Notes: a model not told the origin generated them from the letters alone. A DNA stretch of 64,000 nt from a virus (IMGVR_UViG_3300009177_000029:105064-169063); one strand, 5' to 3'. Positions 9,265 through 63,979 are shown, counted from the stretch's first letter. A program made the numbers and translations.

Positions 9265-9279
9265 GGTATCACCTACGTA

Positions 9280-10302: not shown

Positions 10303-10516
10303 ACTGGTTCTTTCCAGTGATACGGATGATCAAAGCATCCTTGTCAGGCACAACTGACACCTCAAACAAGTCAGTCTCATGTCCCTTCTTGAATGGCGAG
10401 CAAAACTCCATCAAATCCTCGATGAGAGTAGCACCATCCGCATACTGGTTCCTCTTGATGTTCGGTTGACGCTTGAGAACACGGTCAATGACTCGCCACA
10501 TAGCTTCGCTCTTCAT
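10226..10516 (-). CDS. hypothetical protein
   Basis: ORF track 96 aa; start possibly internal Met. Confidence 0.3.
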   Translation of the reverse strand: MKSEAMWRVIDRVLKRQPNIKRNQYADGATLIEDLMEFCSPFKKGHETDLFEVSVVPDKDALIIRITGKNQFGKAAVMQWSEDAVAAEFQDPEDEC

Positions 10517-10719
10517 GTTTGGTCCTTTCTACGAGGGTACAAGTTCATGGCACAGATAACACCGAACACAAAGTATATGTTGGACAGGATAGCGAACACA
10601 GCCGCAGTCCACGACACCCACCAACAAGCAACCCAGAAGCAAAACATGACCGCAAAGCAGCCAAGCATCCACTTCCACCACCTAAGATGAGCTTCCACGT
10701 CGTATGTCTCAGTAGTCAT
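10513..10719 (-). CDS. hypothetical small membrane protein
   Basis: 68 aa with two hydrophobic helices (CFAVMFCFWVACWWVSW, AAVFAILSNIYFVFGVICA). Confidence 0.35.
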   Translation of the reverse strand: MTTETYDVEAHLRWWKWMLGCFAVMFCFWVACWWVSWTAAVFAILSNIYFVFGVICAMNLYPRRKDQT

Positions 10720-10722
10720 ACG

Positions 10723-11421: not shown

Positions 11422-11589
11422 CTATACTCGACGGGTACTATTTTTCAAAAATCTAATATCCGGAGGCAGGTACAGGACTTACCCGACCCCAAGGAATCCC
11501 TTTTGATACGTGCTTGTCAACCGTACCCCTTTTGATACATGGCCCATTCCGTGCATACGTATCTCCCCGGATACATGAGGAAATGTGTG

Positions 11590-12480: not shown

Positions 12481-12635
12481 AAGCTCACGTAATCATTGAG
12501 GAATAGACCGATTTTACTATGGCGGTAAACGGCCGCCGGTGTGCCACATTGTGCCACGACGCAATAGGCCAATGAAAACAAGCATTTAGCTCGCATTGCC
12601 CCGATTCGCCACGTGCCCCGTAATGACCCGAAATC

Positions 12636-12729
12636 GCTAAGTATGCGAAATCATTAGGCTTACATTAGCACACATGAGTCGTTTCGGGGCAGTGTGAGGC
12701 ATCACACAGAGGCTAAGTATGCGAAATCA
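12636..12729. repeat. 18-bp direct repeat gctaagtatgcgaaatca (two copies, 12636-12653 and 12712-12729)
   Basis: Exact match seen in sequence in the non-coding region upstream of the rightward arm. Confidence 0.45.
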
Positions 12730-12872
12730 CTCGGATCCGCTATAGGTTGAAAGGCTGAACAAACTAGCAGTGTTGAAATAAGCTAATAGAATCGCTTACT
12801 TACGTCGTTGGCACGACGGCTGCAACGTCTCGCGTAGGCGCAAAGCCGCGGCGAGAGGCATCGAAAAAGCCT

Positions 12873-12900
12873 TTGACCGCTTCTCGTTCTCTGTTAGTGT
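12873..12900 (+). promoter_or_regulatory. candidate sigma70-like promoter for rightward arm
   Basis: TTGACC-N16-TAGTGT ~65 nt upstream of gene 12968; SD aagagga before ATG. Confidence 0.3.
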
Positions 12901-12967
12901 CTCCCTTCCCATTGTGGGAAAACCGTTCCGCCTCGGATGTTAAGGCGTGTCAGAAGAGGATCGCACC

Positions 12968-13243
12968 ATGGCCAATCGCACCGTCACGATCGAGGGTCGC
13001 AACGTCACGATCACGCGTGAGACCCCCAAGGGACCCAAGGTCACGCACGAGACGATCGTCTCGTTCGCGGAAGGGGGCGCCATCGCTTCCGAGTCGGCCC
13101 GTGTGGCGCTCGCACTGGCGCGCACCGATGGTGCGTACCGTCGCCAGGGTGCGGCCGCTGCGCGTCGTGCGCTGGCCCCGATGCGCGATGCACTCCGCTC
13201 GGCGCTGGACGCCTCGATCGCGGAAGCGCTCGCCGCGGAGTGA
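12968..13243 (+). CDS. hypothetical Ala/Arg-rich protein (GC-rich island)
   Basis: Met with SD aagagga 7 nt upstream (MANRTVTIEGRNVTITRETPKG...); ORF track 12947..13243. Confidence 0.4.
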   Translation: MANRTVTIEGRNVTITRETPKGPKVTHETIVSFAEGGAIASESARVALALARTDGAYRRQGAAAARRALAPMRDALRSALDASIAEALAAE

Positions 13244-13315
13244 GCTAGGCCGAAACCTAGGGGGCGCAAGCCCCCGATGGTCTGTGCGTTACGCGCACAC
13301 TGACGATGGCCCCAC

Positions 13316-13982
13316 TGTGAACACCATTTCACATAAGCACGCGCCCGACGCATTCGCCACGTGTGGCGTTTGCTTCGCCCTTGCCGTGCGTGCGGAACGT
13401 GGCCCCGTTGTGCGTGCGAGCGGCACCGATCGTGCGGCCGATGCGCCCGTGTGCGCGCCCGTGCTTCCGATCGCAACGGATCGCGTTGTGGCGCATGCGA
13501 TCGTCGATCACACGATCGCAGCGGTCAAGCGTGCGCGTGCTCTCACGTCGGATCCTCGTGTCATTCTCGGCGCTTTCGAGTCAACGCAAGTCAAGATCGG
13601 TGCGCCTGCTACGGCTGCGCGCTCCACTGTCACGCTTGCGGCTCGTGTCGAGTCGGGCGAGGCGATCGATGCGATCCACGCTCTAGACCGTGACAATACG
13701 GGCGCGTTGCCGCGTAACCGTATGCGCGTGCGTGGCTCGCATGGCAGTGCAGGCCCGTCCGAGGCGCCTCAGGCGTTCCCGACGGCTGATACCGTCACGG
13801 GCGCCCGTGAGGGAGCACGCGGTAAGGCGTGCGCTGATATGGTGCGCCTTTGCGAGCGCTATCGTACGTCCAGCGGGCGCGATAAGGCGCTCGCGCGTGA
13901 CGCAATCCGCTTCCTACTCGACACGTGGCAGGATGACGCGGTGCGAAATGCCGCGATCTCCGGAGGATTCCCCGCACGCTGA
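13316..13982 (+). CDS. hypothetical protein (GC-rich island)
   Basis: C-terminal two-thirds of ORF 12873..13982 looks protein-like; its N-terminal part overlaps 12968..13243 and is RS-rich, so that part is wrong-frame; start guessed at GTG 13316. Confidence 0.3.
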
Positions 13983-16027: not shown

Positions 16028-16498
16028 ATGGGAAACCTCTACATCATGATCGGCGTTCCTGGCAGCGGCAAGAGCACAGAAGCGAAGCGCATCATGCGCA
16101 CGCATAGTGTGATTCGTGAACGCGTCGAGATCGTCTCCGCGGACACATACTTCATGAACGAGAACGGCGATTATGCCTTCAATCCCAAGGGTTTGGGTGA
16201 GGCGCACGCCGAGTGCTTCCGTGATGCATGTGACTACGCCACGCGTGGTGTGGACTGCATCATCGTGGACAACACGAACCTGACCAACGTTGAGCGAGCG
16301 CCCTACTATCAGTTGGGTGTGGCGTTCGGCTACAAGGTGCACATGGTGTGGGTGCATCCCGGCCTCACGTGTGAGGAGTTGGGCGCACGCAACGTGCACG
16401 GCGTCAGTGCGGAAAAGATTCGCACGATGTTCCAGCGGTTCGAAGGCGTATTGCCGCCGCATTGGAAAGTCCAACAGCACAACGTCAACGGGGTGTGA
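16028..16498 (+). CDS. P-loop polynucleotide kinase-like protein (T4 Pnk kinase-domain-like)
   Basis: Walker A IMIGVPGSGKST at N-terminus, IIVDNTNL (Pnk-like D-x-T-N) and small size. Confidence 0.6.
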   Translation: MGNLYIMIGVPGSGKSTEAKRIMRTHSVIRERVEIVSADTYFMNENGDYAFNPKGLGEAHAECFRDACDYATRGVDCIIVDNTNLTNVERAPYYQLGVAFGYKVHMVWVHPGLTCEELGARNVHGVSAEKIRTMFQRFEGVLPPHWKVQQHNVNGV

Positions 16499-16500
16499 CC

Positions 16501-16956
16501 ATGTTCGCCGATCTCAACGACCTTCACGACTTCTGTCGAGAGACGTTCTACTACATCCACGAGGGTGCAGGGCGTGCCGCGTACGACAACCCGTATCAAC
16601 CGGGTTGGGTCGTGAAGGTGCCTCGCAACCTCGCCACACACGAGACGGGCGGGCTCGGACAACAAGCATATGAGATCAGTGTGCTCAAGCGCATTGCTCA
16701 TCTTCCGTTCTGTCCGAAGTTCTGGGTCGAGTACATCCCGACCAAAGAGAACTTCTCGATTCCTGTCATCCACATGGAAAAGGTTGTGCCTCTCACGGGT
16801 GACGAGAAGGTCACGCATCTTCCGTGGTGGTGCAGGTACATCCACGATGGTGCGCAAATCGGCTGGACGAACAAGGGCGGAATCGTTCCGTACGATCTCG
16901 GCTACTTCGTGGAAGTCGAGGATCTAGTCCAAGCGGCAGCGGCGCAGCCACTGTGA
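16501..16956 (+). CDS. hypothetical protein (possible atypical kinase-like)
   Basis: IHDGAQIGWTNKGGIVPYDLGYF weakly resembles catalytic-loop/DFG region of small atypical kinases. Confidence 0.35.
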   Translation: MFADLNDLHDFCRETFYYIHEGAGRAAYDNPYQPGWVVKVPRNLATHETGGLGQQAYEISVLKRIAHLPFCPKFWVEYIPTKENFSIPVIHMEKVVPLTGDEKVTHLPWWCRYIHDGAQIGWTNKGGIVPYDLGYFVEVEDLVQAAAAQPL

Positions 16957-17292: not shown

Positions 17293-17406
17293 CTCTGGGC
17301 AGGGCTTTGGAAGCGCTTGTGCCTCATATGCACAAGTATGACCGTTCGATTCGGTCCCGCACCATTCGTGTCATAGTGGCACGTACCAAAGAGAGGAAAG
17401 GTTTCT

Positions 17407-22650: not shown

Positions 22651-23633
22651 CCAACTTCGACGATCCTCGCATCGCAGTCATCGAGACGACGCCCATGTGG
22701 GCGGGTGATCTCGCCATCACGGACGTGGACAACGCGCTCAAGGCCGAGGGCCTCGATGATGCGTTGCTTCCGGCACAGCCTTCGCGTGCGGTCGCGATGC
22801 GCCGTGCGTTCCAGGAGTGTGCGCCGCGTGGTGCTCGCATCGATCCGCTGCCGGCTGGCATGGGAGTTGCTATGTCCCTCAAGGACGTGGCTGCTCTCGA
22901 TCTCGAAGCCCTGGCCACGGCGTCGGGTCACGACGTGCGATCGGCTGCGTCGTACCACACGCAGTTCTCGGCAAAGATTCTCGTGCAGAACATCAACGCC
23001 TCGGAGATCGAGACGCTGACGTTCACGCCCGACGATCACGTGATGACTCCGCTCGTGCGTGAGGTCTATCGCGCCAAGCGTGAGCAGTACAAGGCCAGCG
23101 AGGATCTCTCGGTCTGGTTCTCGCAGACCATCATCCCGGCTGTGGGTGGTGTCGGCAAGCGCTCGCGTGGTGGTGTGTACTACGTGCCCGCTGCTCGTCG
23201 TGAGGTGCTGCTCAAGGTCGCGTCGGCGCTAAGCAAGCTCTCGCAATCGCATGCGATTCAGCGCATGGTGGCGGGTGTGAGCATCCCCGTCTACCAGCTC
23301 ACGCACGGTGGAAAGCTGTGCCTCGAACCGCGCTACTCGGACGATTCCGCTGCGATGGAGATCCTCATCGACGGCGTGATTCGGGATACCGACAGTGCCC
23401 TCGACGGCCTGTCGGATGCTCTCGACGTGAAGGAGGGCAAGCGTCCGCTGGGCAAGCGTGGGCTGGCCACCAAGAAGAAGGAAGCTGCCGTGCTCGAAGC
23501 ACAGCTCGCCTCGTGGGAAAGTGTGTGCAGCGTTTCCCTCGATCTTCTGCGCAACCGCCTCAGTGAAATGCAGGCGGCGATCGGCACCGCAGAGCTGGCT
23601 GCCGAGCTGGCCGATGCCGAGGCCGACAAGTGA
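22647..23633 (+). CDS. hypothetical protein (upstream partner of macro-domain gene)
   Basis: ATGA overlap with previous; 328 aa; GTGA-coupled to macro gene. Confidence 0.4.
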   Translation: MTNFDDPRIAVIETTPMWAGDLAITDVDNALKAEGLDDALLPAQPSRAVAMRRAFQECAPRGARIDPLPAGMGVAMSLKDVAALDLEALATASGHDVRSAASYHTQFSAKILVQNINASEIETLTFTPDDHVMTPLVREVYRAKREQYKASEDLSVWFSQTIIPAVGGVGKRSRGGVYYVPAARREVLLKVASALSKLSQSHAIQRMVAGVSIPVYQLTHGGKLCLEPRYSDDSAAMEILIDGVIRDTDSALDGLSDALDVKEGKRPLGKRGLATKKKEAAVLEAQLASWESVCSVSLDLLRNRLSEMQAAIGTAELAAELADAEADK

Positions 23634-24130
23634 CCATCATTCACTACGTCCGTGGTGATGCCACGGAGCCACGTGGTGATGGACACAAGATCATCGTGCA
23701 TTGCTGCAACGATATCGGTGCTTGGGGCGCTGGTTTCGTACTGGCAATCTCGAAAAAGTGGCCGCATGTCGAGGATGCGTATCGTGCTCTCGGAAGCTAC
23801 GCGCTGGGTGACGTCCAGTTCGTGAAGGCAACCGAAGATATCACGGTCGCGAACATCATCGGCCAGCACGGAATCGGCGGCATGTCTCGTGCCTTGGATA
23901 GTGGTAGAAAGCTGTCCGCAGGATATCGCGACAAGCATCCACCGATTCGGTACGAAGCGATCGAGCAGGGCCTGAGGGTCGTGCGCTATCGTGCCACGAA
24001 TCATGCGCATCTTGCTTCGGTTCACATGCCTCGCATGGGCTGTGGCCTGGCTGGTGGTTCGTGGGACACGATGGAGCCGATCATCGCGAAGGCTCTACAA
24101 GATCTCGAAGTGACGGTCTACGACTTCTGA
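23630..24130 (+). CDS. macro-domain protein (ADP-ribose binding/hydrolase)
   Basis: GDATEP (GDITE-like), IVHCCNDIGAWGAGFVLAI (glycine-rich ADP-ribose pocket), HMPRMGCGLAGGSWDTMEPII. Confidence 0.7.
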   Translation: MTIIHYVRGDATEPRGDGHKIIVHCCNDIGAWGAGFVLAISKKWPHVEDAYRALGSYALGDVQFVKATEDITVANIIGQHGIGGMSRALDSGRKLSAGYRDKHPPIRYEAIEQGLRVVRYRATNHAHLASVHMPRMGCGLAGGSWDTMEPIIAKALQDLEVTVYDF

Positions 24131-37651: not shown

Positions 37652-38461
37652 ATGACTACCTACTTCAACGACCACCTCGACTACGCCAGAGACCCAACAA
37701 ATGGACACTATCTGCTACGCTATCGCGTATGCAAACAGTGTCTTCATACATTTGATCCCGAGCCCGTTGAACCTGCATATCCCAGAGTTCAAAACGCGGA
37801 GACAAAGGCAGAGTATGATCAAGAAATGGTCATGTTCCAGCGCCGTCACGATGTTTGGGAAAAGGACGTTCTAGACCACCTACAAGGGCATCCGCTCATC
37901 AAGTGTGAGCACTGTGCCACTGTAGTGAAGAAAAGTGCCCTCAAAGCTCACCAGAAAACCTTTGGCTGTACGGTCATGCGTAGACAAAGGATCATGGAAG
38001 AGAAGGGCTTCAAGAACATACAAGAAGACTATAGCATCATGTCTTCGGTAGTGAATGTTCTTGCTATCAAGATGCTACATGATACGGCATACAGTAACGA
38101 CCACTTTGATAGCGAAGAGGTACGCGAGCTGATCCATCATGAACGCGACGAAGCCAAGCGCCTGCTGACCCGTCTAGGAGGCATCAGGTTGGCCTATACG
38201 CGGTATAACAAGATCAACCCGAACCTGGATGCGGATGACCCGGCACAGGGCTGGCAGCTCGTTGCATGGGCTCCTGGTGACACGGCGCTCGCACTCAAGG
38301 AAGTCTTCAAGAAATGGCACAGAATCCCATGGAATCAAACGTCGCAAAATCTGGACGTGAAGATGGAGGCGTACTACCGCATGTGGGAGTGGCTCCAATC
38401 CGACGACGATACACGTTTTGCGATGATCGGTCTCTGGGAGCTAGCCGACGCTCCGTTGTAA
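37652..38461 (+). CDS. GLWELA-family paralog with C2HC zinc finger
   Basis: CEHCATVVKKSALKAHQKTFGC + RRQRIMEEKGF; C-term FAMIGLWELADAPL. Confidence 0.45.
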   Translation: MTTYFNDHLDYARDPTNGHYLLRYRVCKQCLHTFDPEPVEPAYPRVQNAETKAEYDQEMVMFQRRHDVWEKDVLDHLQGHPLIKCEHCATVVKKSALKAHQKTFGCTVMRRQRIMEEKGFKNIQEDYSIMSSVVNVLAIKMLHDTAYSNDHFDSEEVRELIHHERDEAKRLLTRLGGIRLAYTRYNKINPNLDADDPAQGWQLVAWAPGDTALALKEVFKKWHRIPWNQTSQNLDVKMEAYYRMWEWLQSDDDTRFAMIGLWELADAPL

Positions 38462-38508: not shown

Positions 38509-38994
38509 ATGTGGGAGCAGATCCTACAGGACATCCCTGTCCTTGTGGGCAAGGTAGACCCGCAGGCACACAAGAAAGGCAATGCTCTCTGTGTGTATTG
38601 TGGTCAGCTCTTCACATTCGGAATGCTTCCGCGCCACGAGAAGTCCTTCGAGTGCATCGCTCGCCGTAATGCGTTTCGAGCCTACGAGGATGGATACGTC
38701 CAGTACCACCGAGGATACAACGCTGGCACTCTGAGCCGCTCTACGTGGGCACAACCCTTTCTCAAGACATACAAGTCTGAGACTGGCAAAGAGCGTTGGG
38801 ACAAGCCACTCATGCTTGTCGAGCGCTATTGGGCACGAGATTGGTGGCTTCCCATAGCCTACATGACTCGTGACCTGTCTGCACCCATCCGACACTTGCA
38901 CATGAAAAATGTGCTAGAGCTGTACGAAGCGGGTGACATGGACGGCATCGACGCACTTGTTGGTGGCATCGAACTTGCTAAGGCTGCACTATGA
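38509..38994 (+). CDS. GLWELA-family paralog with C2HC zinc finger
   Basis: CVYCGQLFTFGMLPRHEKSFEC; C-term LELYEAGDMDGIDALVGGIELAKAAL; start chosen at internal Met. Confidence 0.4.
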   Translation: MWEQILQDIPVLVGKVDPQAHKKGNALCVYCGQLFTFGMLPRHEKSFECIARRNAFRAYEDGYVQYHRGYNAGTLSRSTWAQPFLKTYKSETGKERWDKPLMLVERYWARDWWLPIAYMTRDLSAPIRHLHMKNVLELYEAGDMDGIDALVGGIELAKAAL

Positions 38995-39320
38995 CTGTGC
39001 CATATGTCTCGAATCCAGTACCAATGTGGTTGCAGGAAGCCGGGCGTTTCACCCGTCTCAAGGATCTGAGACTCGTGTCGAATGACCCCAATCCTAACAC
39101 CGCACGGGCACGTGTACGAGACAGATGGATTCAGTTGTATCCATCAAGGGCATTCTATCATCCATTCGCCATTCAGCTCTACAAGATTCTGTCAAAGAAC
39201 ACCTTGTATGTGAATGTTGATACGTTGGAAGAGAAATACTTCACGGCGTTAGAGCGTTGGCACAAAGGTGATCCAGACTTCGACGCGTGGCTCGGAATCA
39301 TGGAGCTAGCCAATGACTGA
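38991..39320 (+). CDS. GLWELA-family paralog
   Basis: C-term ALERWHKGDPDFDAWLGIMELAND. Confidence 0.4.
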   Translation: MTVPYVSNPVPMWLQEAGRFTRLKDLRLVSNDPNPNTARARVRDRWIQLYPSRAFYHPFAIQLYKILSKNTLYVNVDTLEEKYFTALERWHKGDPDFDAWLGIMELAND

Positions 39321-39891
39321 ATCTCGAAGGCTCCGCAAGATGCGTGCCGATGAAGCACGTAGGCGTGAAGAACAGTTCATGCACCAAGGTCTGATGAGGC
39401 CAAATGATTGGGCCGAAGAGTGGATGGCCGTATCAGAGGAAAGGCTTGATCGCCTGGTCAAAGCTGGCCTAGTTCGGCTTGGTCCTAAGCCATACGAACC
39501 AAAGCTTGGCCCTAACGAATGGCGCATAGCGGCTCGTCAGCCTATGTTCGTAGAGCCGATGGCCCTGTCGGTGTACCGACACCTCGAAAAGAAGTACCAA
39601 AACGAATTCAATGGTACAGCCCACGAAAACTTCGAGAAAGAGTTCTTCGACATCATCCAGAAATGGCTGGATGACAAGTCCTGTGAAGACGCTATTCTCG
39701 GAACCCTTGAGCTAGAGGCAGAGAGCTTCGAGAAGCTCGATGTGACTATGCTCCGAGGAATCTCTCCACAACAACAGCGTGCTTCTCTAACTGCACTACA
39801 ACACGTCGAGAACATGCTGTATAAACAAACAATACTGACTGAGGAGGACATGTATGGTCTCGACGCACTCATCGAATCCGATGACCCTTGA
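39313..39891 (+). CDS. hypothetical protein, divergent GLWELA-family-like
   Basis: KWLDDKSCEDAILGTLELEAE segment. Confidence 0.35.
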   Translation: MTESRRLRKMRADEARRREEQFMHQGLMRPNDWAEEWMAVSEERLDRLVKAGLVRLGPKPYEPKLGPNEWRIAARQPMFVEPMALSVYRHLEKKYQNEFNGTAHENFEKEFFDIIQKWLDDKSCEDAILGTLELEAESFEKLDVTMLRGISPQQQRASLTALQHVENMLYKQTILTEEDMYGLDALIESDDP

Positions 39892-46086: not shown

Positions 46087-46298
46087 GTTCACCCGGTCGC
46101 TGGATCCTGTGAGCGCGCTCATGGGTCGCTTGCGCATCATCGAGGCTGATTTAGTTCAAAGCGACTGTCAGTCTGCACAGTAGGCCGCCAGGTGCACTGA
46201 GGAGACAAGAGTAACGTTCCTTGTGGGTGCAGTGAAAGCAACGGTTCTACACTTGGTGTTGTTATCCTGGTTCGATTCCGGGAGGCTGGATAGGAGAA

Positions 46299-47705
46299 AT
46301 GACAATGCGTTCAAACCTGATTCTCGATACGGATAGCTACAAGGCAAGTCATGAGGGTATGTACCCGCCTGGCATGGACAGCATGTTCTCCTACTTGGAG
46401 AGTCGTGGTGGTCTGTACAAGCACACGGTGTTCTTCGGGTTGCAGTATCTTCTCCGCGAGTATCTCTCCACTCCGATCACGCCTGCGGATGTGATCGAGG
46501 CGGAAATGTTCTTCAAGGACCATGGCGAGCCGTTCAACGCTGGTCCGTGGAACAAGTGCATCGAGAAGTTCGGTGGCTATCTGCCGATCATCATTCGTGC
46601 CGTCGAAGAGGGAACCGTAGTTCCTACGCACAACATCCTCATGAGTGTCGAGTCCTCGGGCAAGGACCCTGAGGTTGCGTCAATCGTTTCCTACATGGAG
46701 ACGATGCTCATGCGCATGTGGTATCCCATCACGGTGGCTACCACGAGCTACGAGTGCAAGCGTGTCATCATGCGGCACCTCAAGAAGACATCGGATGACC
46801 CGAAGGCCGAGATTGGCTTCAAGCTTCACGACTTCGGTGGGCGTGGTGTATCGTCGAGGGAAAGCGCCGGGATTGGTGGCGCTGCGCACCTTGCGAACTT
46901 CATGGGCAGTGATACGGTCGAGGGCATTCGCCTTGCGAACCTCGTGTACCACTCGCAGATGAGTGGTTTCAGCATCCCTGCAACCGAGCACTCTACCATT
47001 ACCTCTTGGGGTCGAGACAAGGAAGACGAAGCCTATGCGAACCTCGTCAAGCGCTTCTGCAAGCCCGGTGCACTCGTCGCCTGTGTCTCGGATTCGTATG
47101 ACCTGTACCGCGTTGTGGAACAGGTTTGGGGAGGTGACATTGGTCGAATGGTTGAGAGTAGTGGTGCTACTCTGGTCATTCGCCCTGATAGTGGAGACCC
47201 TGCGAGTGTTGTGTGTAATGTGCTCGACCTGATGAAGCGCAAGGTTGGCATGAGCATGAACAGCAAGGGTTACTACGTCCTTCCGAAGCACTTCCGCATC
47301 ATTCAGGGAGACGGCGTGAATCCTGTGTCCATCGACGAGATTCTCACGAAGATGGAACTCAGCGGTTACAGTGGCACGAACATCGCGTTTGGCATGGGTG
47401 GCGCACTGCTACAGAAGGTCGACCGTGATACGCAGAAGTTTGCGTACAAGTGTTCGTCCTGCACTGTGAACGGTGTCAAGCGTGACGTGTTCAAGGATCC
47501 GGTCACGGATCATGGCAAGATGAGCAAGCGCGGTGAGCTTGACCTCATCGAGAACGAGCGCGGTGACTTTCAGACGGTCACGCGTACGAGTCTCACGGAC
47601 GACAAGAGTCTACTCAAGGTCGTCTACAAGCCCGGCTTGATCGTACTCAACCAGGATCTGCAATCGATTCGCGGACGTATCGATGCAGCTCTAGATCAAG
47701 AGTAA
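46299..47705 (+). CDS. nadV: nicotinamide phosphoribosyltransferase
   Basis: N-terminal LILDTDSYKASH signature of NAMPT/NadV family, 468 aa, GGG/RPDSGD segments. Confidence 0.85.
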   Translation: MTMRSNLILDTDSYKASHEGMYPPGMDSMFSYLESRGGLYKHTVFFGLQYLLREYLSTPITPADVIEAEMFFKDHGEPFNAGPWNKCIEKFGGYLPIIIRAVEEGTVVPTHNILMSVESSGKDPEVASIVSYMETMLMRMWYPITVATTSYECKRVIMRHLKKTSDDPKAEIGFKLHDFGGRGVSSRESAGIGGAAHLANFMGSDTVEGIRLANLVYHSQMSGFSIPATEHSTITSWGRDKEDEAYANLVKRFCKPGALVACVSDSYDLYRVVEQVWGGDIGRMVESSGATLVIRPDSGDPASVVCNVLDLMKRKVGMSMNSKGYYVLPKHFRIIQGDGVNPVSIDEILTKMELSGYSGTNIAFGMGGALLQKVDRDTQKFAYKCSSCTVNGVKRDVFKDPVTDHGKMSKRGELDLIENERGDFQTVTRTSLTDDKSLLKVVYKPGLIVLNQDLQSIRGRIDAALDQE

Positions 47706-47706
47706 C

Positions 47707-47880
47707 ATGAAAGCCCACTCGTGGACACCCATTCCGGTTGGTAAACGAGCGAAAACAACATTGAACTGGCCCATGTGCTCCGCATGTGGGCTTGTTCGCT
47801 TGAAGAACTCTGCTACAGAACGCGCGGTACGTGAACCGTGTGACCCAGAAGGCGAACTCAAGAAAGGTAAGAAGCGATGA
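47707..47880 (+). CDS. small Cys-containing protein (57 aa)
   Basis: Reading frame ending in ATGA overlap with next gene; CSACG motif. Confidence 0.25.
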   Translation: MKAHSWTPIPVGKRAKTTLNWPMCSACGLVRLKNSATERAVREPCDPEGELKKGKKR

Positions 47881-48287
47881 CTACGTATCGCGAAGACAGC
47901 AGAGCCGAAGAAATCAAGGCACTGACTGCAAGGCTTACGCACGCGAATAACTTGCTTCGTAACAAAGAAGCAAGGGTTGTCCAACTAGAGGCATCCAATC
48001 AGAGTCTTGAACAACAGATCCGTGAGACGGACCATACGCGTAGAGACCGGATGGAACGAATCGTACAGTATTCGAAAGCTTTCACGGCTCTCTGTCTCAC
48101 CGTGTCTGTTTGCTTGTTTAGCCGTGGTTGTATGGACTCTATCACAGAGCACGATACGCAAGAACAAGTGGAAGCGGCTGCTCGATGTTCGCGGGTGTGT
48201 GAGCTAAGTCATGCGGAAGTGTTGACTTGTCGTGCACAATGGGTATCGTGTATTGACGATACTCACGTTGAAGGCCATCAGTTCTGA
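47877..48287 (+). CDS. hypothetical coiled-coil protein
   Basis: ORF track 136 aa. Confidence 0.35.
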   Translation: MTTYREDSRAEEIKALTARLTHANNLLRNKEARVVQLEASNQSLEQQIRETDHTRRDRMERIVQYSKAFTALCLTVSVCLFSRGCMDSITEHDTQEQVEAAARCSRVCELSHAEVLTCRAQWVSCIDDTHVEGHQF

Positions 48288-48294
48288 GGAAACC

Positions 48295-49401
48295 ATGAAT
48301 CTCGAAAAGCTTCGTGATAGTGCGGTCCCGCCTCGCGTCTATGTGATTGCGACGGGAGCCGGGTCTTCCATCCAGCAAAAGCTTTGGCGCCTTCCTGGCG
48401 CCAGCAAGTATCTCGTGGGCGCACAGTTCCCGTATGCTTGCGAAGCTACTCAAGAAGTATTGGGCTTCAAGCCTGACCACTTCGTGAGCGTCGAGACGGC
48501 CATCGCGCTTGCACAACGCGCCTACTACCATGCACTGGCTGCGAAGCGTCCTGGGGCTGCTGTGGGCCTGGGAATGACGTGTTCTGTGGCCAGTCTCGAA
48601 GAGCATCGTGGCGAGCACCGTATTATCACTGCGGTGGTAACTGACAACGTTTGTTTGTACGAAGAGTTTCCGCTCAAGAAGGGCGTCGGAAAGAAGACTC
48701 GTGCAGACGATGATGAGGCTGCTGAGGGCACGGCTCTTGCCATGCTTGCAACGGCACTCGGTCAGACGGTCAACGAGGACATCGCGCCTGTGGATGGCCA
48801 GGCTCTAGGTCGAAAGGTTTGGTTCGAGCGTCCACTTCATGTGCATGGCGCGTGTTCTGGTGTTCCGCTGAATGGTACACCGAAGCGTCCTGGTGCGCGA
48901 TTGTTGTTCGTGCCAGGTGCGTTCAACCCACTACACGAGGGTCACGAAAACCTGATTCATGCTGCGAAGTTGACCAGCGGAAGAGAGCCGATTCTGTCCA
49001 TCACGGCCAATCCACCGCACAAGCCGCACTTGACAGTACCTGAAATGATCGCTAAGGTACGACACCTGAAAGACCACGCAGTCTACTTCAACCAGGATCC
49101 ACTGTTCATCGATCAGGCGCGTCGCTTTCCTGGCGCAGCGTTTGCAATCGGTGCTGATGCGATGCATCGCATGCTCGACCCCAAGTGGTGTCCTGTTGAG
49201 CCCATGCTTGAGGAGTTCAAGCAGCTCGATACCAAGTTCTATGTCAGTTCACGACTCGTCGGAACTGAGTACATGGACTCTCTGGAAGTTCTGCGTGCCC
49301 ACAACATGAGCCTAAAGTATGTGGGCATGTTCCATGGAGTCGAAGTGCCACGTCTAGACATTTCTTCAACCCAAATCCGCAACGCACAAACGAAAGAGTG
49401 A
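48295..49401 (+). CDS. nicotinamide-nucleotide adenylyltransferase domain protein (C-terminal NMNAT; N-terminal domain unknown)
   Basis: FVPGAFNPLHEGHENL (HxGH nucleotidyltransferase motif) with downstream ISSTQIR; SD tgaggaaacc. Confidence 0.55.
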   Translation: MNLEKLRDSAVPPRVYVIATGAGSSIQQKLWRLPGASKYLVGAQFPYACEATQEVLGFKPDHFVSVETAIALAQRAYYHALAAKRPGAAVGLGMTCSVASLEEHRGEHRIITAVVTDNVCLYEEFPLKKGVGKKTRADDDEAAEGTALAMLATALGQTVNEDIAPVDGQALGRKVWFERPLHVHGACSGVPLNGTPKRPGARLLFVPGAFNPLHEGHENLIHAAKLTSGREPILSITANPPHKPHLTVPEMIAKVRHLKDHAVYFNQDPLFIDQARRFPGAAFAIGADAMHRMLDPKWCPVEPMLEEFKQLDTKFYVSSRLVGTEYMDSLEVLRAHNMSLKYVGMFHGVEVPRLDISSTQIRNAQTKE

Positions 49402-54622: not shown

Positions 54623-55367
54623 TCAGTACGACCTAAGCCAGAACGCTAGGATGCACGCAGACAAGCATCCCTGTGTACCAGATCCGTATAGCCGCAATGG
54701 ATTCTTCGTAGAATCGGAGTTTCCTATGGCGAGTGAGTCGGTTGAGTACACTGACGGTATAGACACTTGGACTGAACAAGATGCTTGCAGCGGCACTCTG
54801 CCGGAGAGAAAACTCGACTCTTTGGAGAAAGAGTTTGAGAAGGGCATGGCCATCAGTATTGAAGAGCAGTTCGCTAAACGCGGATTTGTTAACGTCCCAA
54901 AGACTGTCATCGAACGCCTAGAAGCTCAGGCACGTGAAATAGTCAATGGGGCGTCCATGCCAGGTGTAGTGTGTGCCGAGGTCAACGTACAGCCTGAGTA
55001 TGAAGAGATCTTGGACGGTCGTCTCATCAAAGACATGGACGGCATTGAGGCAATGGTTCGTGTAGTCTCGAAGCATATCGAGATGGCCGAGGGCCTTGGT
55101 GCCAATGAGGATGGAACACTGGCTGTAGACCTGACTGCGGAAGAGTGGTCCTGGTTGGTGGTCTACGCGCAGTATTTTCAACAAGGTAAACCTGTACGCT
55201 TCCATGACGACTCTTGGACGATGCCGAAGCAGCATCATGGGTTTGCCAACCGTAAACCTGTTACCTTCACGCACCCTGTTACCTTCACGCACACCGCGAT
55301 TGAGAAACCGCGAGAACTTACCGAAGCTGAGAAACTACAGGAACGCATCAGGAAGGGACTGATATGA
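54603..55367 (+). CDS. hypothetical protein
   Basis: ORF track 254 aa. Confidence 0.35.
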   Translation: MSLKPNNQYDLSQNARMHADKHPCVPDPYSRNGFFVESEFPMASESVEYTDGIDTWTEQDACSGTLPERKLDSLEKEFEKGMAISIEEQFAKRGFVNVPKTVIERLEAQAREIVNGASMPGVVCAEVNVQPEYEEILDGRLIKDMDGIEAMVRVVSKHIEMAEGLGANEDGTLAVDLTAEEWSWLVVYAQYFQQGKPVRFHDDSWTMPKQHHGFANRKPVTFTHPVTFTHTAIEKPRELTEAEKLQERIRKGLI

Positions 55368-55942
55368 CATCCGTACGAATGATTGAGGCAATCCGTTACG
55401 CTACGCTCATGCATGGGACGCAGAAGCGTAAGGCGGCTAACCGCATGCACGTCCCGTACATGGTTCACCCTCTTGAGGTGACTGCCATTCTGATCGAGAA
55501 TGGTGTGACGGACGAAGACACGCTCATCGCCGCCGTCCTACACGATGTGCTTGAGGATTGCCGTGACAACGGAGCCAATGAGGAAGCTATCCGAAACAAG
55601 TTCGGTGAAGCAGTTCTCGGCTACGTCCTTGAGAACACGGACGACAAGGCACTCGATAAGAACGAGCGCAAGCGTTTGCAGGTTATCAACGCAGTTCACA
55701 AGAGTGCGCCCGCAGCACTCGTGAAGGCGGCCGATAAGACCAGCAACATGCGAGACATTGTGCGTGTTCCTCCGGGTTGGCCGCCTCACATCATCCGAGC
55801 GTACGTGCAGAATGCACGTGACGTCGTGAAGGCGCTTCCTGCGGAAACGTGTAACGCAGGCATTCGTGCAGCGTTCTACCAGGCGTCTCAGGATGCCTTG
55901 GATGCGGCTGCCGAGATGGAGGCCAATGCCAAGAAAGTCTAA
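55364..55942 (+). CDS. HD-domain metal-dependent phosphohydrolase
   Basis: HPLEV...LHDVLED (H...HD...D) motifs; ATGA overlap. Confidence 0.6.
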   Translation: MTSVRMIEAIRYATLMHGTQKRKAANRMHVPYMVHPLEVTAILIENGVTDEDTLIAAVLHDVLEDCRDNGANEEAIRNKFGEAVLGYVLENTDDKALDKNERKRLQVINAVHKSAPAALVKAADKTSNMRDIVRVPPGWPPHIIRAYVQNARDVVKALPAETCNAGIRAAFYQASQDALDAAAEMEANAKKV

Positions 55943-58290: not shown

Positions 58291-58908
58291 ATGCTGAACC
58301 GTCTACGCCTCATGTTTCTGAACGCTTGTGTCTACATTGCAGCCAAACTTACTGCTGCGGCACAGTACATCTTCTCGGCTAGTGTTGGCCTCGCCATGAA
58401 ATGGGAGGCCAAGGAAGGTAAGCCGACAGCGGCAGTGGCAAAGGTCGAAGTGGCAAAGGAAGAGCCTGCTCCGGTCGCGGAGAAGCCCTCGGAGCGCCAT
58501 CGTCGACGTCGTAGGGAACGTACCAACGTCGAGGCTCCAAAGGCTGCTGAGGCGCCCACAGAGGCCGCAAAGCCAGCCCCGAAGGATCGACAGGCACTGG
58601 CACCAGAAGTCAATCCTTTCAGTGCGGGTGGCGTCGATGGTCCAGTTCCAATGTGCATGGATCCGCTGCCTACGTTCGTCATCTTCGAGGCAATGTTCAA
58701 CAAGAAGTACGGACGTAATGGTCGCTGCCCACTGAATGTGAGTGGGAATGCTCACGCATACACTGCACTGGAACTCTACACACTGCTTAGTAGGATCCAG
58801 TCGGATGGTGAGAAGGCCGGTCCTGTATACAACGCGCTCTATGGCACGTGTGTCAGCGTCATCCTGCACCAGCACGGGAAGCAGATTCAGGCAAAGGAAC
58901 TCAACTGA
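58291..58908 (+). CDS. hypothetical membrane-anchored protein with Ala/Pro/Lys-rich linker
   Basis: N-terminal hydrophobic helix; [14 protein letters not shown] low-complexity. Confidence 0.35.
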
Positions 58909-59300
58909 TGAAGCTCGCAGTCTGTATGGTCGTCTACAATCCGGAGGGAAAGCTGTGCATCGTTTCTCGAAAGAAGCGTGCTGGCGACTGGAACTTGCCT
59001 GGTGGCAAGGTTGACCCAGGTGAGACTCCCTCCGCAGCGGCTCTTCGCGAGCTAGTAGAGGAGACAGGGCTCTTGGGTCACAAACCCAAGTATGTCTTCT
59101 CTTCGGCTATCGAGGACTACTGTGTGGACTGTTATGTCATCCAAAGCTATCAAGGTGACATTCAGCAGATCGAGGGTGAAGGTGAGGTTCGTTGGGGTAG
59201 CTGGGACGACTTGCTACAGCCGGAACGTGCCTTCTTCGAGTACAACACGAAGCTTTACGAGCACCTCGTGAAGTTGGACATGGCGAACGTGAAGAAATGA
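58908..59300 (+). CDS. Nudix hydrolase
   Basis: Nudix box [23 protein letters not shown] (Gx5Ex7REUxEExGU). Confidence 0.75.
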
Positions 59301-60103
59301 GACAGTATCTCACCAACCTAGATCCCGAAGACGAGAAGCGGGCGCAAGCCGCAGCCACGAACAAATCTTTCGTCAATCGTCATCGATCAAATCAGTATCC
59401 GAAGACGTGGTGTGCGCAGTGCGGACACTTCTTTGGCAGCGAACCGTCGTGGGGTTCTCATGCAGATAGGCCAGCACACTTCTACGACCTACCAAGGCAT
59501 GAGAGGAAAGCAATCCTAGTCAAGTTGGAGACACCGGAGTACAAGCTGTTTCACAACAGTGTTGAACTTCACATGATCGATAAGCACCACTTTAAGAAGT
59601 GCGATCAATGTGGTGTACTCGTCAAGAACATCAAGACACATCAGAAGTCTATCGCGTGTTTGTGTACGGCCAAGCAGCGCCAGATGGAAGACCAAGGCTA
59701 CATGCAGGTTGGTCACATGATGGCTGTGTTCGAGGAGCTACTGCAAGACGACTTGCAAGCGCGTCTGTCGAAGGTCGGTGATGTAGTCGAGTTCGACCGA
59801 ATCAACGAAGAGTTCGAAGCAGAGAAGAAAGAGTTGGTCAAATCTCTCGCTATCCAGAACGTGGTGAGTGACTACTCCAAAGCTCAAAACTCCTTCGGAA
59901 ATACGTTGGGTTGGCAGTGGCGTCCTTGGGTGCCGCTTGACATCGGAGAAGGATTACTCTTTCTCTACAAACACATCAAGAAGAGCAACGATCGCAAGAA
60001 ACTACCCGGATACCTACAAGAGTTGAGAAACTTCACGAAAGCCGATGACGCAGGCAAGCAAGCAATCCTTGGCCTGTGGGAGTTGGCGGAAATGGTACCA
60101 TGA
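59297..60103 (+). CDS. GLWELA-family paralog with C2HC zinc fingers
   Basis: CAQCGHFF..H; [20 protein letters not shown] + [11 protein letters not shown]; C-term [12 protein letters not shown]. Confidence 0.45.
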
Positions 60104-60672
60104 AGATTCTATTCCTAGACGTCGATGGTGTGCTCAATGATGAGCAGACGTGCAAACGCGCTACATGGAAGGATGACCGAACGTTCTTCCGTCCTCTGTA
60201 CGTTGAGCGTGTCAATCGCATTCTGGCAGCTACAGGTGCCAAGCTAGTAATCTCTTCGTCGTGGCGTGTTCGTTACTCCACTCTCGAAGAGCTAAAGGCT
60301 GCGTTCCACAAGTTTGGCTTTGACCCAGATCTGGTCATTGACAAGACGCCAACTGGATACCGCAGTCGCCGGATGAGTGAGACTATGTACCGTGGTCTCG
60401 AAATCCAGCACTGGCTCTCGGACAACGCTGAGAATCACGACGTGGAATCAATCGTGATTCTTGACGATGACCAGGATATGCTCCATCTTGACCATCGTCT
60501 GATTCGCACTGAGGGATTTCGAGTTCCACTAGATGGCGGAATCAGCGAAGCTCAGGTTGCCGAAGCAATCGCACTGTTCAATACGCCCGACGATGTGCAC
60601 AAGCGCTTTGATTGGGACCAGTTTGTAGACAATCGCCAAGCCCACCTCAACTACTTGAAGGACAAGTCATGA
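60100..60672 (+). CDS. HAD-superfamily hydrolase (RNA-repair 'Swiss-army-knife' HAD-like)
   Basis: Motif I ILFLDVDGVLN, VISSSWR, ILDDD. Confidence 0.5.
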   Translation: MKILFLDVDGVLNDEQTCKRATWKDDRTFFRPLYVERVNRILAATGAKLVISSSWRVRYSTLEELKAAFHKFGFDPDLVIDKTPTGYRSRRMSETMYRGLEIQHWLSDNAENHDVESIVILDDDQDMLHLDHRLIRTEGFRVPLDGGISEAQVAEAIALFNTPDDVHKRFDWDQFVDNRQAHLNYLKDKS

Positions 60673-61802: not shown

Positions 61803-62237
61803 TTGGCCTCTAATGTTGATGACTTGAAGCCTAGTGACCTTTGCGCGGTCATAGGTTGGCTTCTCATCGGTATGAGCCTTAGGCTCGGGCACAAGCGTTT
61901 CGGTACGCTCCGGACACAGAATATCGATCGTGATGACCATACTGCCTCCTGTCTATACAGTATGGTCATACAAATCTGGTTTGTCAACATGCACACTCCT
62001 GTAGCGTTATTTAACAGAGCCCGGGTGTTACACGAGCTAGTGTTTCGCCCGCCACGTCCTCCGTTCAAGTATCAGGAATGGATGGACTCATTGGCTGACC
62101 ACGTAATCTACAGACGCACAGGAAAGTACGTGGACTTCAACGCCTTGAAAGAGGCGTACGAGGCTGGACTAAGCGGTGACATGGACAAAGTAGACCTCTA
62201 TCTCGGTATGCACCAACTAGCAAAGGAAGAAGACTAA
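61803..62237 (+). CDS. GLWELA-family paralog
   Basis: C-term LKEAYEAGLSGDMDKVDLYLGMHQLAKEED; start uncertain. Confidence 0.4.
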   Translation: MASNVDDLKPSDLCAVIGWLLIGMSLRLGHKRFGTLRTQNIDRDDHTASCLYSMVIQIWFVNMHTPVALFNRARVLHELVFRPPRPPFKYQEWMDSLADHVIYRRTGKYVDFNALKEAYEAGLSGDMDKVDLYLGMHQLAKEED

Positions 62238-62501: not shown

Positions 62502-62848
62502 TGCTGCGTCACTCGAAGAACTATCTACGCTTCATCTTTGTAGCGGAGCTACTAGCTCGTGCCACGGCATTTGTAGCTGCGATGTTCAAGGTCTTGTTCT
62601 GGTTCCGTTATCCGATTGAGGATTGGCCGCACTTCAAGATCTGGATCAACGCCGTCTATTCTCACAAGCGAACGTACCCCTACCTCTTCTGGGAGAAACA
62701 CATGAGACACTTCTATATCAAGCTACACATCCTTCGTCGTGAGCTAGAAGACTACAACGAAGAGGTCACAGGCTTCTTGAAGGAAGACGAAAAGAAGCCT
62801 GTTCTTGCTCCTCGCAAGCCACTCACGTGGCGGGACACGGTGCTGTGA
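62498..62848 (+). CDS. hypothetical membrane protein
   Basis: ATGA overlap; FIFVAELLARATAFVAAMFKVLFWF. Confidence 0.3.
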   Translation: MMLRHSKNYLRFIFVAELLARATAFVAAMFKVLFWFRYPIEDWPHFKIWINAVYSHKRTYPYLFWEKHMRHFYIKLHILRRELEDYNEEVTGFLKEDEKKPVLAPRKPLTWRDTVL

Positions 62849-63285
62849 TGGCCTTCGACCCTACTACTCCGAAGATTGCGGTTGATATCGTCCTTCGCTG
62901 CGGTCGAAAGATTGCTGTGATCGAGCGCAAGTGGCCACCGCTAGGCTTTGCTCTCCCTGGTGGCTTCGTGGACGTCGGAGAAACTCTGATGCATGCAGCT
63001 TGCCGTGAGACTCAAGAGGAAACTGGCATTGTCATCGGAGAAGACCAACTGCAAAGTCTGGGCTACCTAGATGACCCGAAGCGTGACCCACGACGTCACG
63101 TAATCTCGTTTGGGTTTATCGCCCACCTTGCTCCTATTCAAATCGAGTATGCCGCCGCGGCTGATGACGCAAAAAGCCTCCGCTGGGTGGATATCTTCGA
63201 CTACAAGAAGGAAGGCATCGAGTTCGTCATGCAACACGATATCTTTGTCACTCGTGCCGATCGTCACGTTCACTGGCTTCCATGA
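62848..63285 (+). CDS. Nudix hydrolase (second copy)
   Basis: Nudix box GFVDVGETLMHAACRETQEETGI; TGATG overlap. Confidence 0.7.
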   Translation: MAFDPTTPKIAVDIVLRCGRKIAVIERKWPPLGFALPGGFVDVGETLMHAACRETQEETGIVIGEDQLQSLGYLDDPKRDPRRHVISFGFIAHLAPIQIEYAAAADDAKSLRWVDIFDYKKEGIEFVMQHDIFVTRADRHVHWLP

Positions 63286-63623
63286 GCGAACACGAGTCTC
63301 CGGTCTACATCCCTAGAATGCACAAGTTTGGTTGGAAGAAACCAACACTGAATGGCCATATCAGCCTCGTGCGTTCTAGGTTACCTGCTTCGCAGATAGC
63401 TCAGTGGGATGCATTGTTCGATGATCCGGAAGGGTTCATACCTTCGTGGGTGGTTGACTTCCTGTGTATGGAATACGCGGAACGCCACGTGAAGCACCCA
63501 CGCGACTCCAAGTATTTTGGCTGGGAGTTGAAACCCATTTCCAAAGAGTTGCTGCAAGCAGCTTTCGATAAAGACTGGATGAAGTTCGACAGTATCATCG
63601 GCTTGTACGAGTTGGCCAAATGA
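63282..63623 (+). CDS. GLWELA-family paralog
   Basis: C-term LLQAAFDKDWMKFDSIIGLYELAK; starts MSEH like next gene. Confidence 0.4.
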   Translation: MSEHESPVYIPRMHKFGWKKPTLNGHISLVRSRLPASQIAQWDALFDDPEGFIPSWVVDFLCMEYAERHVKHPRDSKYFGWELKPISKELLQAAFDKDWMKFDSIIGLYELAK

Positions 63624-63979
63624 GTGAACACGCACTTCTACTTCCATGTTTGCTAGGCAGCGACGGCAACACCGAACGCTCTAGAGCATTCAATCTCATC
63701 CTGTCTTCTATGCCTTGGCCTGAGAGCGACAAGTGGTACGCCTTGTTCAAGAGCCAAGCAGGTTACGCACCTATGTGGGCGCTAACATTGCTGCAATACT
63801 CGAAAGAGTTTGAGCGTAGATACGACCAGGATGACCAAGGTAGAAGTGGCTGGATCACACAACCTAAATATACCATTCCACAAGAGTGGATAGACGCGTT
63901 CCATGCAGGTCTCAAGAACGACTGGCAGACGTTCGACAGTGTGCTAGGACTATGGGAGCTTTCTAAAGCAAAGGACTGA
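63620..63979 (+). CDS. GLWELA-family paralog
   Basis: C-term WIDAFHAGLKNDWQTFDSVLGLWELSKAKD. Confidence 0.4.
   Translation: MSEHALLLPCLLGSDGNTERSRAFNLILSSMPWPESDKWYALFKSQAGYAPMWALTLLQYSKEFERRYDQDDQGRSGWITQPKYTIPQEWIDAFHAGLKNDWQTFDSVLGLWELSKAKD

Follow-up and report, generated by a model that had tools for sequence, protein, structure and literature searches.

Does a phage from soil carry, in two neighbouring genes, the means to rebuild nicotinamide adenine dinucleotide (NAD+) in a host that is being depleted of it? The question is raised by positions 46299 to 49401 of a 64,000-nt stretch of viral DNA (IMGVR_UViG_3300009177_000029:105064-169063; hereafter the window), in which a sequence-only reading had recognised a gene for the nicotinamide phosphoribosyltransferase (Nampt) NadV and a gene for a protein with a nicotinamide mononucleotide (NMN) adenylyltransferase (NMNAT) domain, and had proposed that the pair serves in counter-defence. 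The window belongs to a contig of 169,081 bp from a soil metagenome (ERZ27252350 k141_5171420), which we assign to a phage because a GpA-type large terminase is encoded ~6 kb past the window end. Our analysis indicates that NadV and the second protein, a fusion of a CinA/PncC-like and a Pof1/NadD-like domain, probably give this phage of ~169 kb a NARP2-type module that salvages NAD+ in two steps.

The first open reading frame (ORF; 46299..47705, + strand) encodes 468 residues with the N-terminus MTMRSNLILDTDSYKASHEG, also written MTMRSNLILDTDSYK, and contains the DSYK signature from which it had been assigned to the NAMPT/NadV family. Family searches agree with that assignment: the protein was matched by the Pfam domains NAMPT_N (PF18127; E 8e-24) and NAPRTase (PF04095; E 1e-50), by the NCBIfam equivalog PRK09198 (584.5 bits, above the cutoff of 405), and by PHROG 448, 'nicotinamide phosphoribosyl transferase' (E 7e-143). 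The true start of nadV is probably the ATG at 46305, because AGGAG occurs 8 nt 5′ of this codon and a public gene call on the same contig begins there and gives a product of 466 residues; the coordinates of the gene are accordingly taken as 46305..47705 (+). In translation we read the motifs DTDSYK, HDFGGRGVSS, PATEHSTITSWG, IRPDSGDP, IQGDGV, and GMGGALLQKVDRD, and all catalytic and substrate motifs of Nampt were present (TDSYK, DFGxRG, AxEHS in the form PATEHS, RPDSG, GDG, and GxGG...RD). The roles of the motif residues we take to be those of human NAMPT, in which the His of AxEHS is autophosphorylated. Residue roles were also drawn from a published account (PMC12774641). As judged from these motifs and matches, the product of 46305..47705 is a bona fide NadV/Nampt.

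Among isolates, the closest NadV was that of Myxococcus phage Mx1 (52% identity), and over its full length the protein shared 43% identity with the enzyme found in Vibrio phages of the phi-Grn1/VH7D type, which are presumably KVP40-like. The first of these, phi-Grn1, serves as an example of a phage NAD+-synthesis system in comparative work (PMC7824862). At the two positions of the NARP1 'selectivity clamp' helix, NadV has A and K, both non-aromatic; this placement is tentative, having been reached only by counting from the conserved Arg in the manner of PMC12774641. Those parts of the window that were scanned, and the 10 kb downstream, contained no PRPS- or Adps-like gene. This absence, together with the 43% identity to the phi-Grn1/VH7D NadV, tentatively favours an enzyme of the NARP2 type, which uses phosphoribosyl pyrophosphate (PRPP), over one of the NARP1 type. 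Within the 212-nt spacer 5′ of nadV, the sequence CCTGGTTCGATTCCGGG (46268-46284) resembles the T-arm of a transfer RNA (tRNA). ARAGORN found no tRNA in this spacer, Rfam gave no match, and its folding was no better than that of shuffled sequence (z +0.57); the motif is probably a chance resemblance or the trace of a decayed tRNA. A scan for promoters and terminators gave background levels.

The second gene (48295..49401, +) lies 590 nt from nadV on the same strand and encodes a two-domain protein of 368 residues. Its ATG is preceded at 5 nt by GAGGA, a ribosome-binding site overlapping the stop codon at which the upstream ORF ends, and the N-termini of homologues align to the start at 48295. 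A word-index search returned 62 homologues, far beyond chance. In an alignment of 48 homologues (A1), the two halves of the protein are conserved together, the invariant residues including G91, G106, and R136 of the N-terminal and H214, H217, K243, S357, S358, and R362 of the C-terminal one. The AlphaFold2 model (mean predicted local distance difference test score 93.2; predicted template modelling score 0.90) consists of two packed domains and an inter-domain linker (residues 166-198; 48790..48888, +), the length of which varies in A1 and in which model confidence is low only at residues 194-198. The region of ~200 residues that the sequence-only reading had placed ahead of a GAFNPLHEGH motif is seen here as a folded, conserved domain followed by this linker, and the motif itself occurs in the C-terminal half as PGAFNPLHEGH (residues 207-217). 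The description of the locus as NadV paired with an NMNAT-domain protein is likewise upheld by the family matches of both products and by their closeness on one strand.

The C-terminal domain (residues 199-368 and the stop codon; 48889..49401, +) carries PGAFNPLHEGH (48913-48945), NPPHK (with K243), FIDQAR, and GADAMHRMLDPKW, and ends in a second nucleotidyltransferase motif, DISSTQIR (residues 355-362; ISSTQIR at 49360-49380). It was matched at 32 bits by Pfam CTP_transf_like, a model that also matched 47 of the 48 family members. When a sequence profile was searched against the Protein Data Bank (PDB), NadD chains were the best solved relatives (8aih, E 3e-8; 1kam, E 1e-7), and the Foldseek relatives were also NadD structures (3mlb, 5deo, and 3e27). 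Motifs such as GADAxxRMLDPKW resemble those of yeast Pof1, and for a comparison Pof1p and 120 fungal homologues were retrieved, 15 of which were aligned (A5) and compared with the fusion family profile against profile. The resulting hhalign match covered the whole domain (probability 99.2, E 9.4e-20, 166 columns), and in a like-for-like comparison of the family profile with single sequences Pof1 gave E 1.1e-10 and Escherichia coli NadD E 1.1e-6. Conversely, the 120 fungal homologues scored 27-71 bits against the hidden Markov model of the fusion family. The motifs FNPxHxxH, an invariant Lys (NPPHK/NNADK), F(I/V)DK, G(A/F)D..R..DPK(W/Y), and SS(T/S)xxR are common to the C-terminal domain and the Pof1 family, with H43, the invariant K74, and R227 of Pof1 corresponding to H217, K243, and R362. 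Of these, H43 is essential in Pof1, the H43A mutant making no NAD+ (PMC13191266).

Because the alignments to Pof1 NMNATs and to NadD run the whole length of the domain, it is assigned to the NMNAT superfamily, and the match to the Pof1 family and the NadD matches speak against the outcome that the earlier annotation had considered damaging, namely a cytidylyltransferase unrelated to NMNAT. By sequence comparison, it is a nucleotidyltransferase of that superfamily closest to fungal Pof1 and next to bacterial NadD. The cutoffs of the NadD equivalogs were not reached (31.5 bits for TIGR00482, where the cutoff is 112.45, and 17-25 bits for the PRK00071 models, with cutoffs of 150-197), and the PRK05379 models of NadM-type NMNAT/Nudix enzymes did not match the fusion protein. 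Pof1 is listed as an NMN adenylyltransferase, while Nma1/2 are dual enzymes for NMN and nicotinic acid mononucleotide (NaMN) (PMC7072712). From this relationship we infer that the C-terminal domain would make NAD+ from NMN, or possibly nicotinic acid adenine dinucleotide (NaAD) from NaMN.

The N-terminal domain (residues 1-165; 48295..48789, +) showed the fold of CinA/PncC, the NMN deamidases, in structural comparisons. The top Foldseek matches were CinA/PncC structures (2a9s, 4ct8/4cta, 6mr3, and 5kol) at a probability of 1.00 and E 3e-5 to 3e-4, and the target-normalised template modelling scores against CinA structures (2a9s, 4ct8) reached 0.69. Pfam CinA (PF02464) scored 19.0 bits on the window protein, under the gathering cutoff of 23.5, and matched 22 of the 48 relatives at E ≤ 0.01 (best E 7e-6), with the relative P0134 passing the cutoff at 27.4 bits. 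In the CinA of Agrobacterium tumefaciens (AtCinA), S31 and K63 form a catalytic dyad, and both Ala mutants are inactive; the phosphate of NMN is bound by backbone amides at G46 and S48 and by Y58 and R145, with Y58 also contacting the ring (PMC5384747). Residues were mapped by alignment (HMMER and hhalign) with 2a9s, 4ct8, and the PncC of E. coli, with roles taken from the same study; equivalences beyond residues 20-82 rest on secondary-structure position.

The mapping separated substrate contacts from catalytic residues. AtCinA G46, S48, and Y58 correspond to G35, S37, and Y47, which are invariant or nearly so in the family, and the invariant R136, at the start of the last helix, occupies the site of PncC R142/R145, an equivalence by position only. 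T95 is conserved as well and aligns with AtCinA T105. The catalytic K63, on the other hand, corresponds to T52, in a column occupied by T, L, M, Q, V, or F, with no K in any of 69 sequences (the 48 of A1 and the 21 bacterial and viral sequences of a further alignment, A3). S31 corresponds to T20, in a column with T in 39, A in four, C in two, and S in one of the A1 sequences and with T in 14, A in three, and S in three of the 21 in A3. The Ser/Lys dyad of PncC/CinA was thus not found in the fusion family, whereas the phosphate- and ring-contact positions were. R105, H108, R109, and K129 are conserved basic residues beyond those of PncC. The sequence-only reading had described this domain as one of unknown function and had offered CinA as one of three candidates; that candidate agrees with the CinA/PncC-like fold of the domain, which lacks the catalytic lysine of the deamidases. 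Because the mononucleotide-contact positions are kept and the known catalytic machinery is not, we regard the domain as a PncC derivative.

These residues also bear on the improbable alternative that the domain is still an NMN deamidase, relying on Thr20 and a relocated base (K129 or H108), in which case the fusion would be a bifunctional enzyme converting NMN to NaMN and NaMN to NaAD and feeding the NadE of the host. A fusion of a PncC-like with a NadD-like domain would be metabolically sensible, and the C-terminal domain is related to NadD overall and has the same PPH(K/R) motif; its closest characterised relative, Pof1, nevertheless acts on NMN (PMC7072712), and the window showed no gene for NadE. 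At position 20, the place of the nucleophile, 40 of the 48 homologues have Thr or Ser, T95 is conserved, and the substrate-binding residues are kept, but several members have Ala or Cys at position 20 instead. The general-base lysine, moreover, is absent from every one of the 69 aligned sequences, AtCinA K63A is inactive (PMC5384747), and an inactive CinA-domain homologue is already known in E. coli YfaY, which has no NMN deamidase activity (PMC3855486).

In the pathway that we propose, NadV would first join nicotinamide and PRPP to form NMN, a step well supported by homology. The C-terminal domain would then move the adenylyl group (AMP) from ATP to the mononucleotide by means of its HxGH and ISSTxxR motifs, giving NAD+, as suggested by homology and linkage. 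The part of the N-terminal domain is the least certain: it would most likely bind NMN or a related nucleotide without deamidating it and act as a module for capture, hand-over, or regulation. The same domain is probably a dimerisation unit, because CinA enzymes are dimers and their active site takes a residue from the partner subunit (PMC5384747). One or both of two stand-alone Nudix hydrolases encoded in the window probably work with the module, like the fused Nudix domain of NadM-Nudix enzymes. Such a module would maintain NAD+ during infection, including under host cleavage of the TIR, SIR2, or SEFIR type.

We then considered how consistently the genes occur together. NadV lies 0.06-2 kb from the fusion gene in the window and in five further loci (L094, L102, L006, L008, and L012). 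In the syntenic loci L094 and L102, nadV is 258 and 58 nt upstream of fusion genes whose products are 59% and 48% identical, respectively, to that of the window, and no gene was called between the two in either locus. In two giant-virus metagenome-assembled genomes (L006 and L008), the two genes form a divergent pair. In L012, the copy of the fusion gene is frameshifted, and nadV lies ~1.3 kb downstream of it, beyond an intervening Nudix gene. At positions 7959-11542 of that contig (IMG/VR UViG_3300002231_000147), the CinA-NMNAT sequence is split into ORFs 7959-8549 and 8509-8835, followed by the Nudix gene and nadV; the frameshift may stem from a sequencing error, mark a pseudogene, or be programmed. 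In Mx1 (genome 169.6 kb), an equivalent slot 1.3 kb downstream of nadV is occupied by a stand-alone NMNAT, with a macrodomain gene nearby. Using hhalign, we detected no similarity of the fusion family to this NMNAT or to the ORF before it. The absence of similarity rules out a fused version of the Mx1 genes, and the fusion protein appears to fill the Mx1 NMNAT slot as a non-orthologous replacement.

Nudix hydrolases recur in the company of the family. P0134 is itself a triple fusion of NUDIX, CinA, and CTP_transf_like, and its Nudix domain is 37% identical (BLASTP, E 4e-27) to the 130-residue Nudix hydrolase encoded at 58908..59300 (+) of the window (Pfam NUDIX, E 1.5e-20), a likely functional partner of the module. 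A second Nudix hydrolase, of 145 residues (62848..63285, +), belongs by its NCBIfam matches to the ADP-ribose pyrophosphatase type found fused to NMNAT in NadM-Nudix enzymes; its best matches were to the bifunctional NMNAT/Nudix models of PRK05379, in their Nudix half (E 7e-12), and to the ADP-ribose-responsive repressor NtrR. In the viral locus L101, a Nudix gene abuts the homologue directly upstream. Positions 1002-2405 and 9492-9992 of that locus encode a WGR-PARP protein and the abutting Nudix protein, and in another virus-like locus (L099) an ADP-ribosylglycohydrolase gene (5221-6195) lies 1.8 kb upstream of the fusion gene.

Several observations weigh against the module as we propose it. 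NadV was never found within 8 kb of the homologue in 80 bacterial loci, and no NadV occurred within 6-10 kb in six of 11 distinct virus-like loci (L005, L007, L095, L096, L099, and L101); given that six of the 11 viral and all 80 bacterial loci are without it, the fusion protein must also work without a neighbouring NadV. The C-terminal domain has the PPH(K/R) motif and overall homology in common with NadD. NadD enzymes prefer NaMN, and with this resemblance the product could be NaAD instead of NAD+. Recombinant yeast Pof1 had a low apparent catalytic activity (PMC13191266). In the N-terminal domain, finally, R105, H108, R109, K129, and R136 exceed the need of one phosphate and hint at a different or larger ligand.

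In the explanation that we hold least likely, and very unlikely at that, the fusion protein is not an NAD+ synthesis enzyme: its nucleotidyltransferase would act on another phosphorylated substrate, such as an ADP-ribose-derived signal or a cofactor precursor, and the CinA-like domain would bind or process this molecule. The conserved surface of the N-terminal domain is unusually basic, and ADP-ribosylglycohydrolase and PARP genes are neighbours in other viruses; this domain derives, however, from an NMN-binding enzyme, and its aligned NMN phosphate- and ring-contact positions are kept. Curated NadD scores fall far under their cutoffs (31.5 bits against 112), and PPAT and other HIGH-superfamily nucleotidyltransferases give weaker but real matches, yet the strong match over the whole domain is specifically to Pof1 NMNATs, followed by NadD. 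The repeated linkage to NadV across independent viral lineages likewise argues for synthesis of NAD+.

If NadV and the fusion protein do form an NAD+ salvage module, what purpose would it serve? The NAD/ADP-ribose genes of the phage comprise those for NadV, the fusion protein, the two Nudix hydrolases, a DarG-like macrodomain protein, NADAR, and YAcAr/SLOG, and such a set has been tied to NAD+-centred conflict in comparative work on jumbo phages (PMC7824862). The macrodomain protein (166 residues; 23630..24130, +) had a single NCBIfam match (E 8e-11), to DarG, an antitoxin that acts as a DNA ADP-ribosyl glycohydrolase, and is a candidate counter to DarT-type defence or a candidate ADP-ribose-processing enzyme. 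NADAR and YAcAr/SLOG are encoded just past the window end, in a segment (positions 10699-17391 of contig L098, where the window coordinate is that of L098 + 53281) with genes for Dam, a CCA-adding enzyme, the GpA-type terminase, and ParB. By analogy with NARP2 (bioRxiv 10.1101/2024.02.11.579819), and in view of this NAD/ADP-ribose-rich gene content, a counter-defence role may be proposed for the pair.

The enzymes may act as proposed and still serve a different end, a general boost of NAD+ for replication and for the NAD-consuming enzymes of the phage rather than escape from immunity. We consider this purpose somewhat unlikely. NARP2 raises NAD+ even in the absence of a defence system (bioRxiv 10.1101/2024.02.11.579819), and genes for making NAD+ are common among large phages (PMC7824862, PMC11662467). 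The viral fusion gene is often without an adjacent NadV, and the neighbours of its bacterial homologues are unrelated housekeeping genes: the ten largest clusters of such neighbours at the 80 bacterial loci were lineage-specific (photolyase-like, GH3, glucokinase, SSF transporter, sulfite reductase, UbiD, and others), and no NAD-related gene was among these ten annotated clusters. The macrodomain, NADAR, SLOG, and Nudix genes, on the contrary, are typical of NAD/ADP-ribose conflict. In addition, the DNA ligase encoded 1 kb upstream is ATP-dependent by its Pfam and NCBIfam matches, so the module would not be feeding an NAD-dependent ligase there. The two purposes are not exclusive.

The fusion protein is not confined to this phage. 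A profile search returned 8,165 clusters at 50% identity with E ≤ 1e-3 and 2,423 with E ≤ 1e-30; nearly all of the 150 clusters listed span the whole profile, and most are of 340-420 residues. One member, P0147 (885 residues), has an N-terminal extension of ~490 residues that gave no Pfam match; it is a further fusion and may offer a clue to function. When one genome per species was scanned, at least 316 bacterial species carried a homologue, mainly in the Chloroflexota (Dehalococcoidia, SAR202), SAR86, Latescibacterota, Gemmatimonadota, Planctomycetota, and Rokubacteria; Bremerella cremea is a cultured carrier from the Planctomycetota. The bacterial homologues are 25-33% identical to the window protein over its full length, and a homologue with 41% identity sits in a Planctomycete-like chromosomal context. 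Viral carriers include a 452-kb phage (L005), the two giant-virus genomes, and two IMG/VR entries (L007 and L012), and several large virus-like metagenome contigs carry it as well. Among 50,697 phage records, megablast matched none to the 6-kb locus, and the sole tblastn match of the fusion protein was to LR745208, a 485-kb uncultured phage in GenBank, which indicates that there is no close isolate. A 41-mer search for exact matches in IMG/VR gave no copy of the phage. The sequence-only reading had regarded the fusion to NMNAT as the novel part of the locus. This view has to be revised, since the two-domain family is large and mainly bacterial and is not a phage invention.

Annotation of the family is sparse. 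PHROGs held no family for the fusion protein, no curated NCBIfam family covered it, one BFVD entry that belongs to the family is named only 'Cytidyltransferase-like domain containing protein', and we found no description of a CinA-NMNAT fusion architecture in the literature searched. NAD+ reconstitution by phages (NARP1, NARP2, and NARP3) has recently been recognised as a general escape from NAD+-depleting immunity, and present surveys detect it through known NMNAT types. Phages such as the one described here may therefore be missed or scored as 'Nampt only', because PHROGs gives no match and Pfam and NCBIfam give the generic label cytidylyltransferase-like. Hundreds of uncultured bacterial species carry the two-domain protein, among them the abundant marine SAR86 and SAR202, in which it may be the main or an alternative NMN/NaMN adenylyltransferase. 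Yeast Pof1, which has an NMN site and a 'non-canonical' role that is still unclear, gains many prokaryotic and viral relatives with an attached candidate NMN-binding domain. More tentatively, and with less confidence than we place in the salvage module itself, we suggest that proteins joining CinA-like and Pof1/NadD-like domains are an unrecognised and widespread class of pyridine-nucleotide enzymes, in which a degenerate NMN deamidase would have been repurposed as a built-in module that binds or channels NMN or regulates the adenylyltransferase, or would have gained new chemistry (Thr20, H108, K129), and which viruses would repeatedly have borrowed and paired with NadV and Nudix, as a distinct route for rebuilding NAD+ when immunity depletes it. 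The pathway follows a known logic, but its enzyme family is a widespread one that awaits characterisation and can be put to direct test.

Other features of the window were recorded alongside. The space separating nadV from the fusion gene is filled by two small, closely packed ORFs (together 47707..48287, +), which encode a 57-residue product (47707..47880, +) and a coiled-coil-like product of 136 residues (47877..48287, +), both of which gave only sub-threshold family matches in Pfam, NCBIfam, and PHROGs. A small hydrolase of the SpoT/RelA HD type (55364-55942, +; Pfam HD_4, TIGR00691 E 1e-17), kept in L094 and L102, is a possible (p)ppGpp or alarmone hydrolase. A set resembling nucleotide metabolism and RNA repair, located at 3078-5051 (-), 392-1668 (-), 6819-7400 (-), 16462-16956 (+), and 60076-60672 (+), comprises a class II (B12-dependent) ribonucleotide reductase, GNAT, a metallophosphatase, a HAD/PNKP-type phosphatase, an AAA_33 kinase, and a HAD_SAK_2 domain. 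Eight otherwise dissimilar ORFs (9280-9639 (-), 37652-38461, 38991-39320, 39313-39891, 59297-60103, 61803-62237, 63282-63623, and 63620-63979) have in common a module of ~25 residues, '...D(W/F)..F...(I/L)G(L/M)(W/Y/M)EL(A)', located at the protein end in seven of the eight, and may be a paralogous family or carry a shared C-terminal tag. At ~12000-12800, the coding strand changes from mostly minus to mostly plus, GC content rises from 0.49 to 0.57, and GC skew flips sign. The long, Arg/Ser/Pro-rich ORF at 12873-13982 may not be a real gene. The sole tRNA gene of the window is that of tRNA-Met (CAT) at 17293-17363 (+).

Among known systems, the PncC/CinA enzymes (E. coli YgaD, A. tumefaciens 2A9S, and Thermus thermophilus CinA) share with the N-terminal domain the fold, the G-x-S and Tyr contacts, and an Arg at the likely phosphate site. 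In the window's family, by contrast, the catalytic Lys is missing, conservation of the Ser is lost, (A)TG(A/G)G stands in place of the ESCTGG block, and the fusion partner is an NMNAT and not a MocF/COG1058 domain. The domain resembles the known inactive CinA-domain homologue YfaY. Bacterial NadD has the same fold as the C-terminal domain, provides its best solved-structure matches, and shares the PPH(K/R) motif, but it is more distant than Pof1 in the like-for-like comparison, its models score below their cutoffs, and the window protein has the extra N-terminal domain. The family of yeast Pof1 (YCL047C) gave the best whole-length profile match to the C-terminal domain, with HxxH, the invariant Lys, FxDK, GxDxxxRxxDPK(Y/W), and SSxxxR in common. 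It differs in being eukaryotic, with identity of ~20%, and its 120 fungal homologues, most of 240-320 residues, match only the nucleotidyltransferase region.

With NadM-Nudix and NadR, in which a HIGH nucleotidyltransferase is joined to a Nudix domain or a P-loop kinase, the window protein shares the fusion of an NMNAT to a second NAD-cycle domain in large phages; its CinA-like partner, however, is not among the phage NMNAT architectures described in PMC7824862. The closest likeness at the level of the pathway is to NARP2, the Nampt and NatV of Vibrio phage KVP40 (Osterman et al., bioRxiv 10.1101/2024.02.11.579819). Both have a phage Nampt beside a gene of the NMNAT superfamily, a route (predicted for the window) from nicotinamide and PRPP through NMN to NAD+, and an associated Nudix. 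The adenylyltransferase of the window is non-orthologous, being Pof1/NadD-like with a CinA/PncC-like domain, whereas KVP40 NatV is NadM-like with a Nudix domain; the Nudix genes of the window are separate and 10-14 kb away. Strict NARP2 calls for demonstrated function and for a NatV-type Nmnat, from which the predicted enzyme differs, and on present homology the locus is best filed as NARP2-like with a new NMNAT variant.

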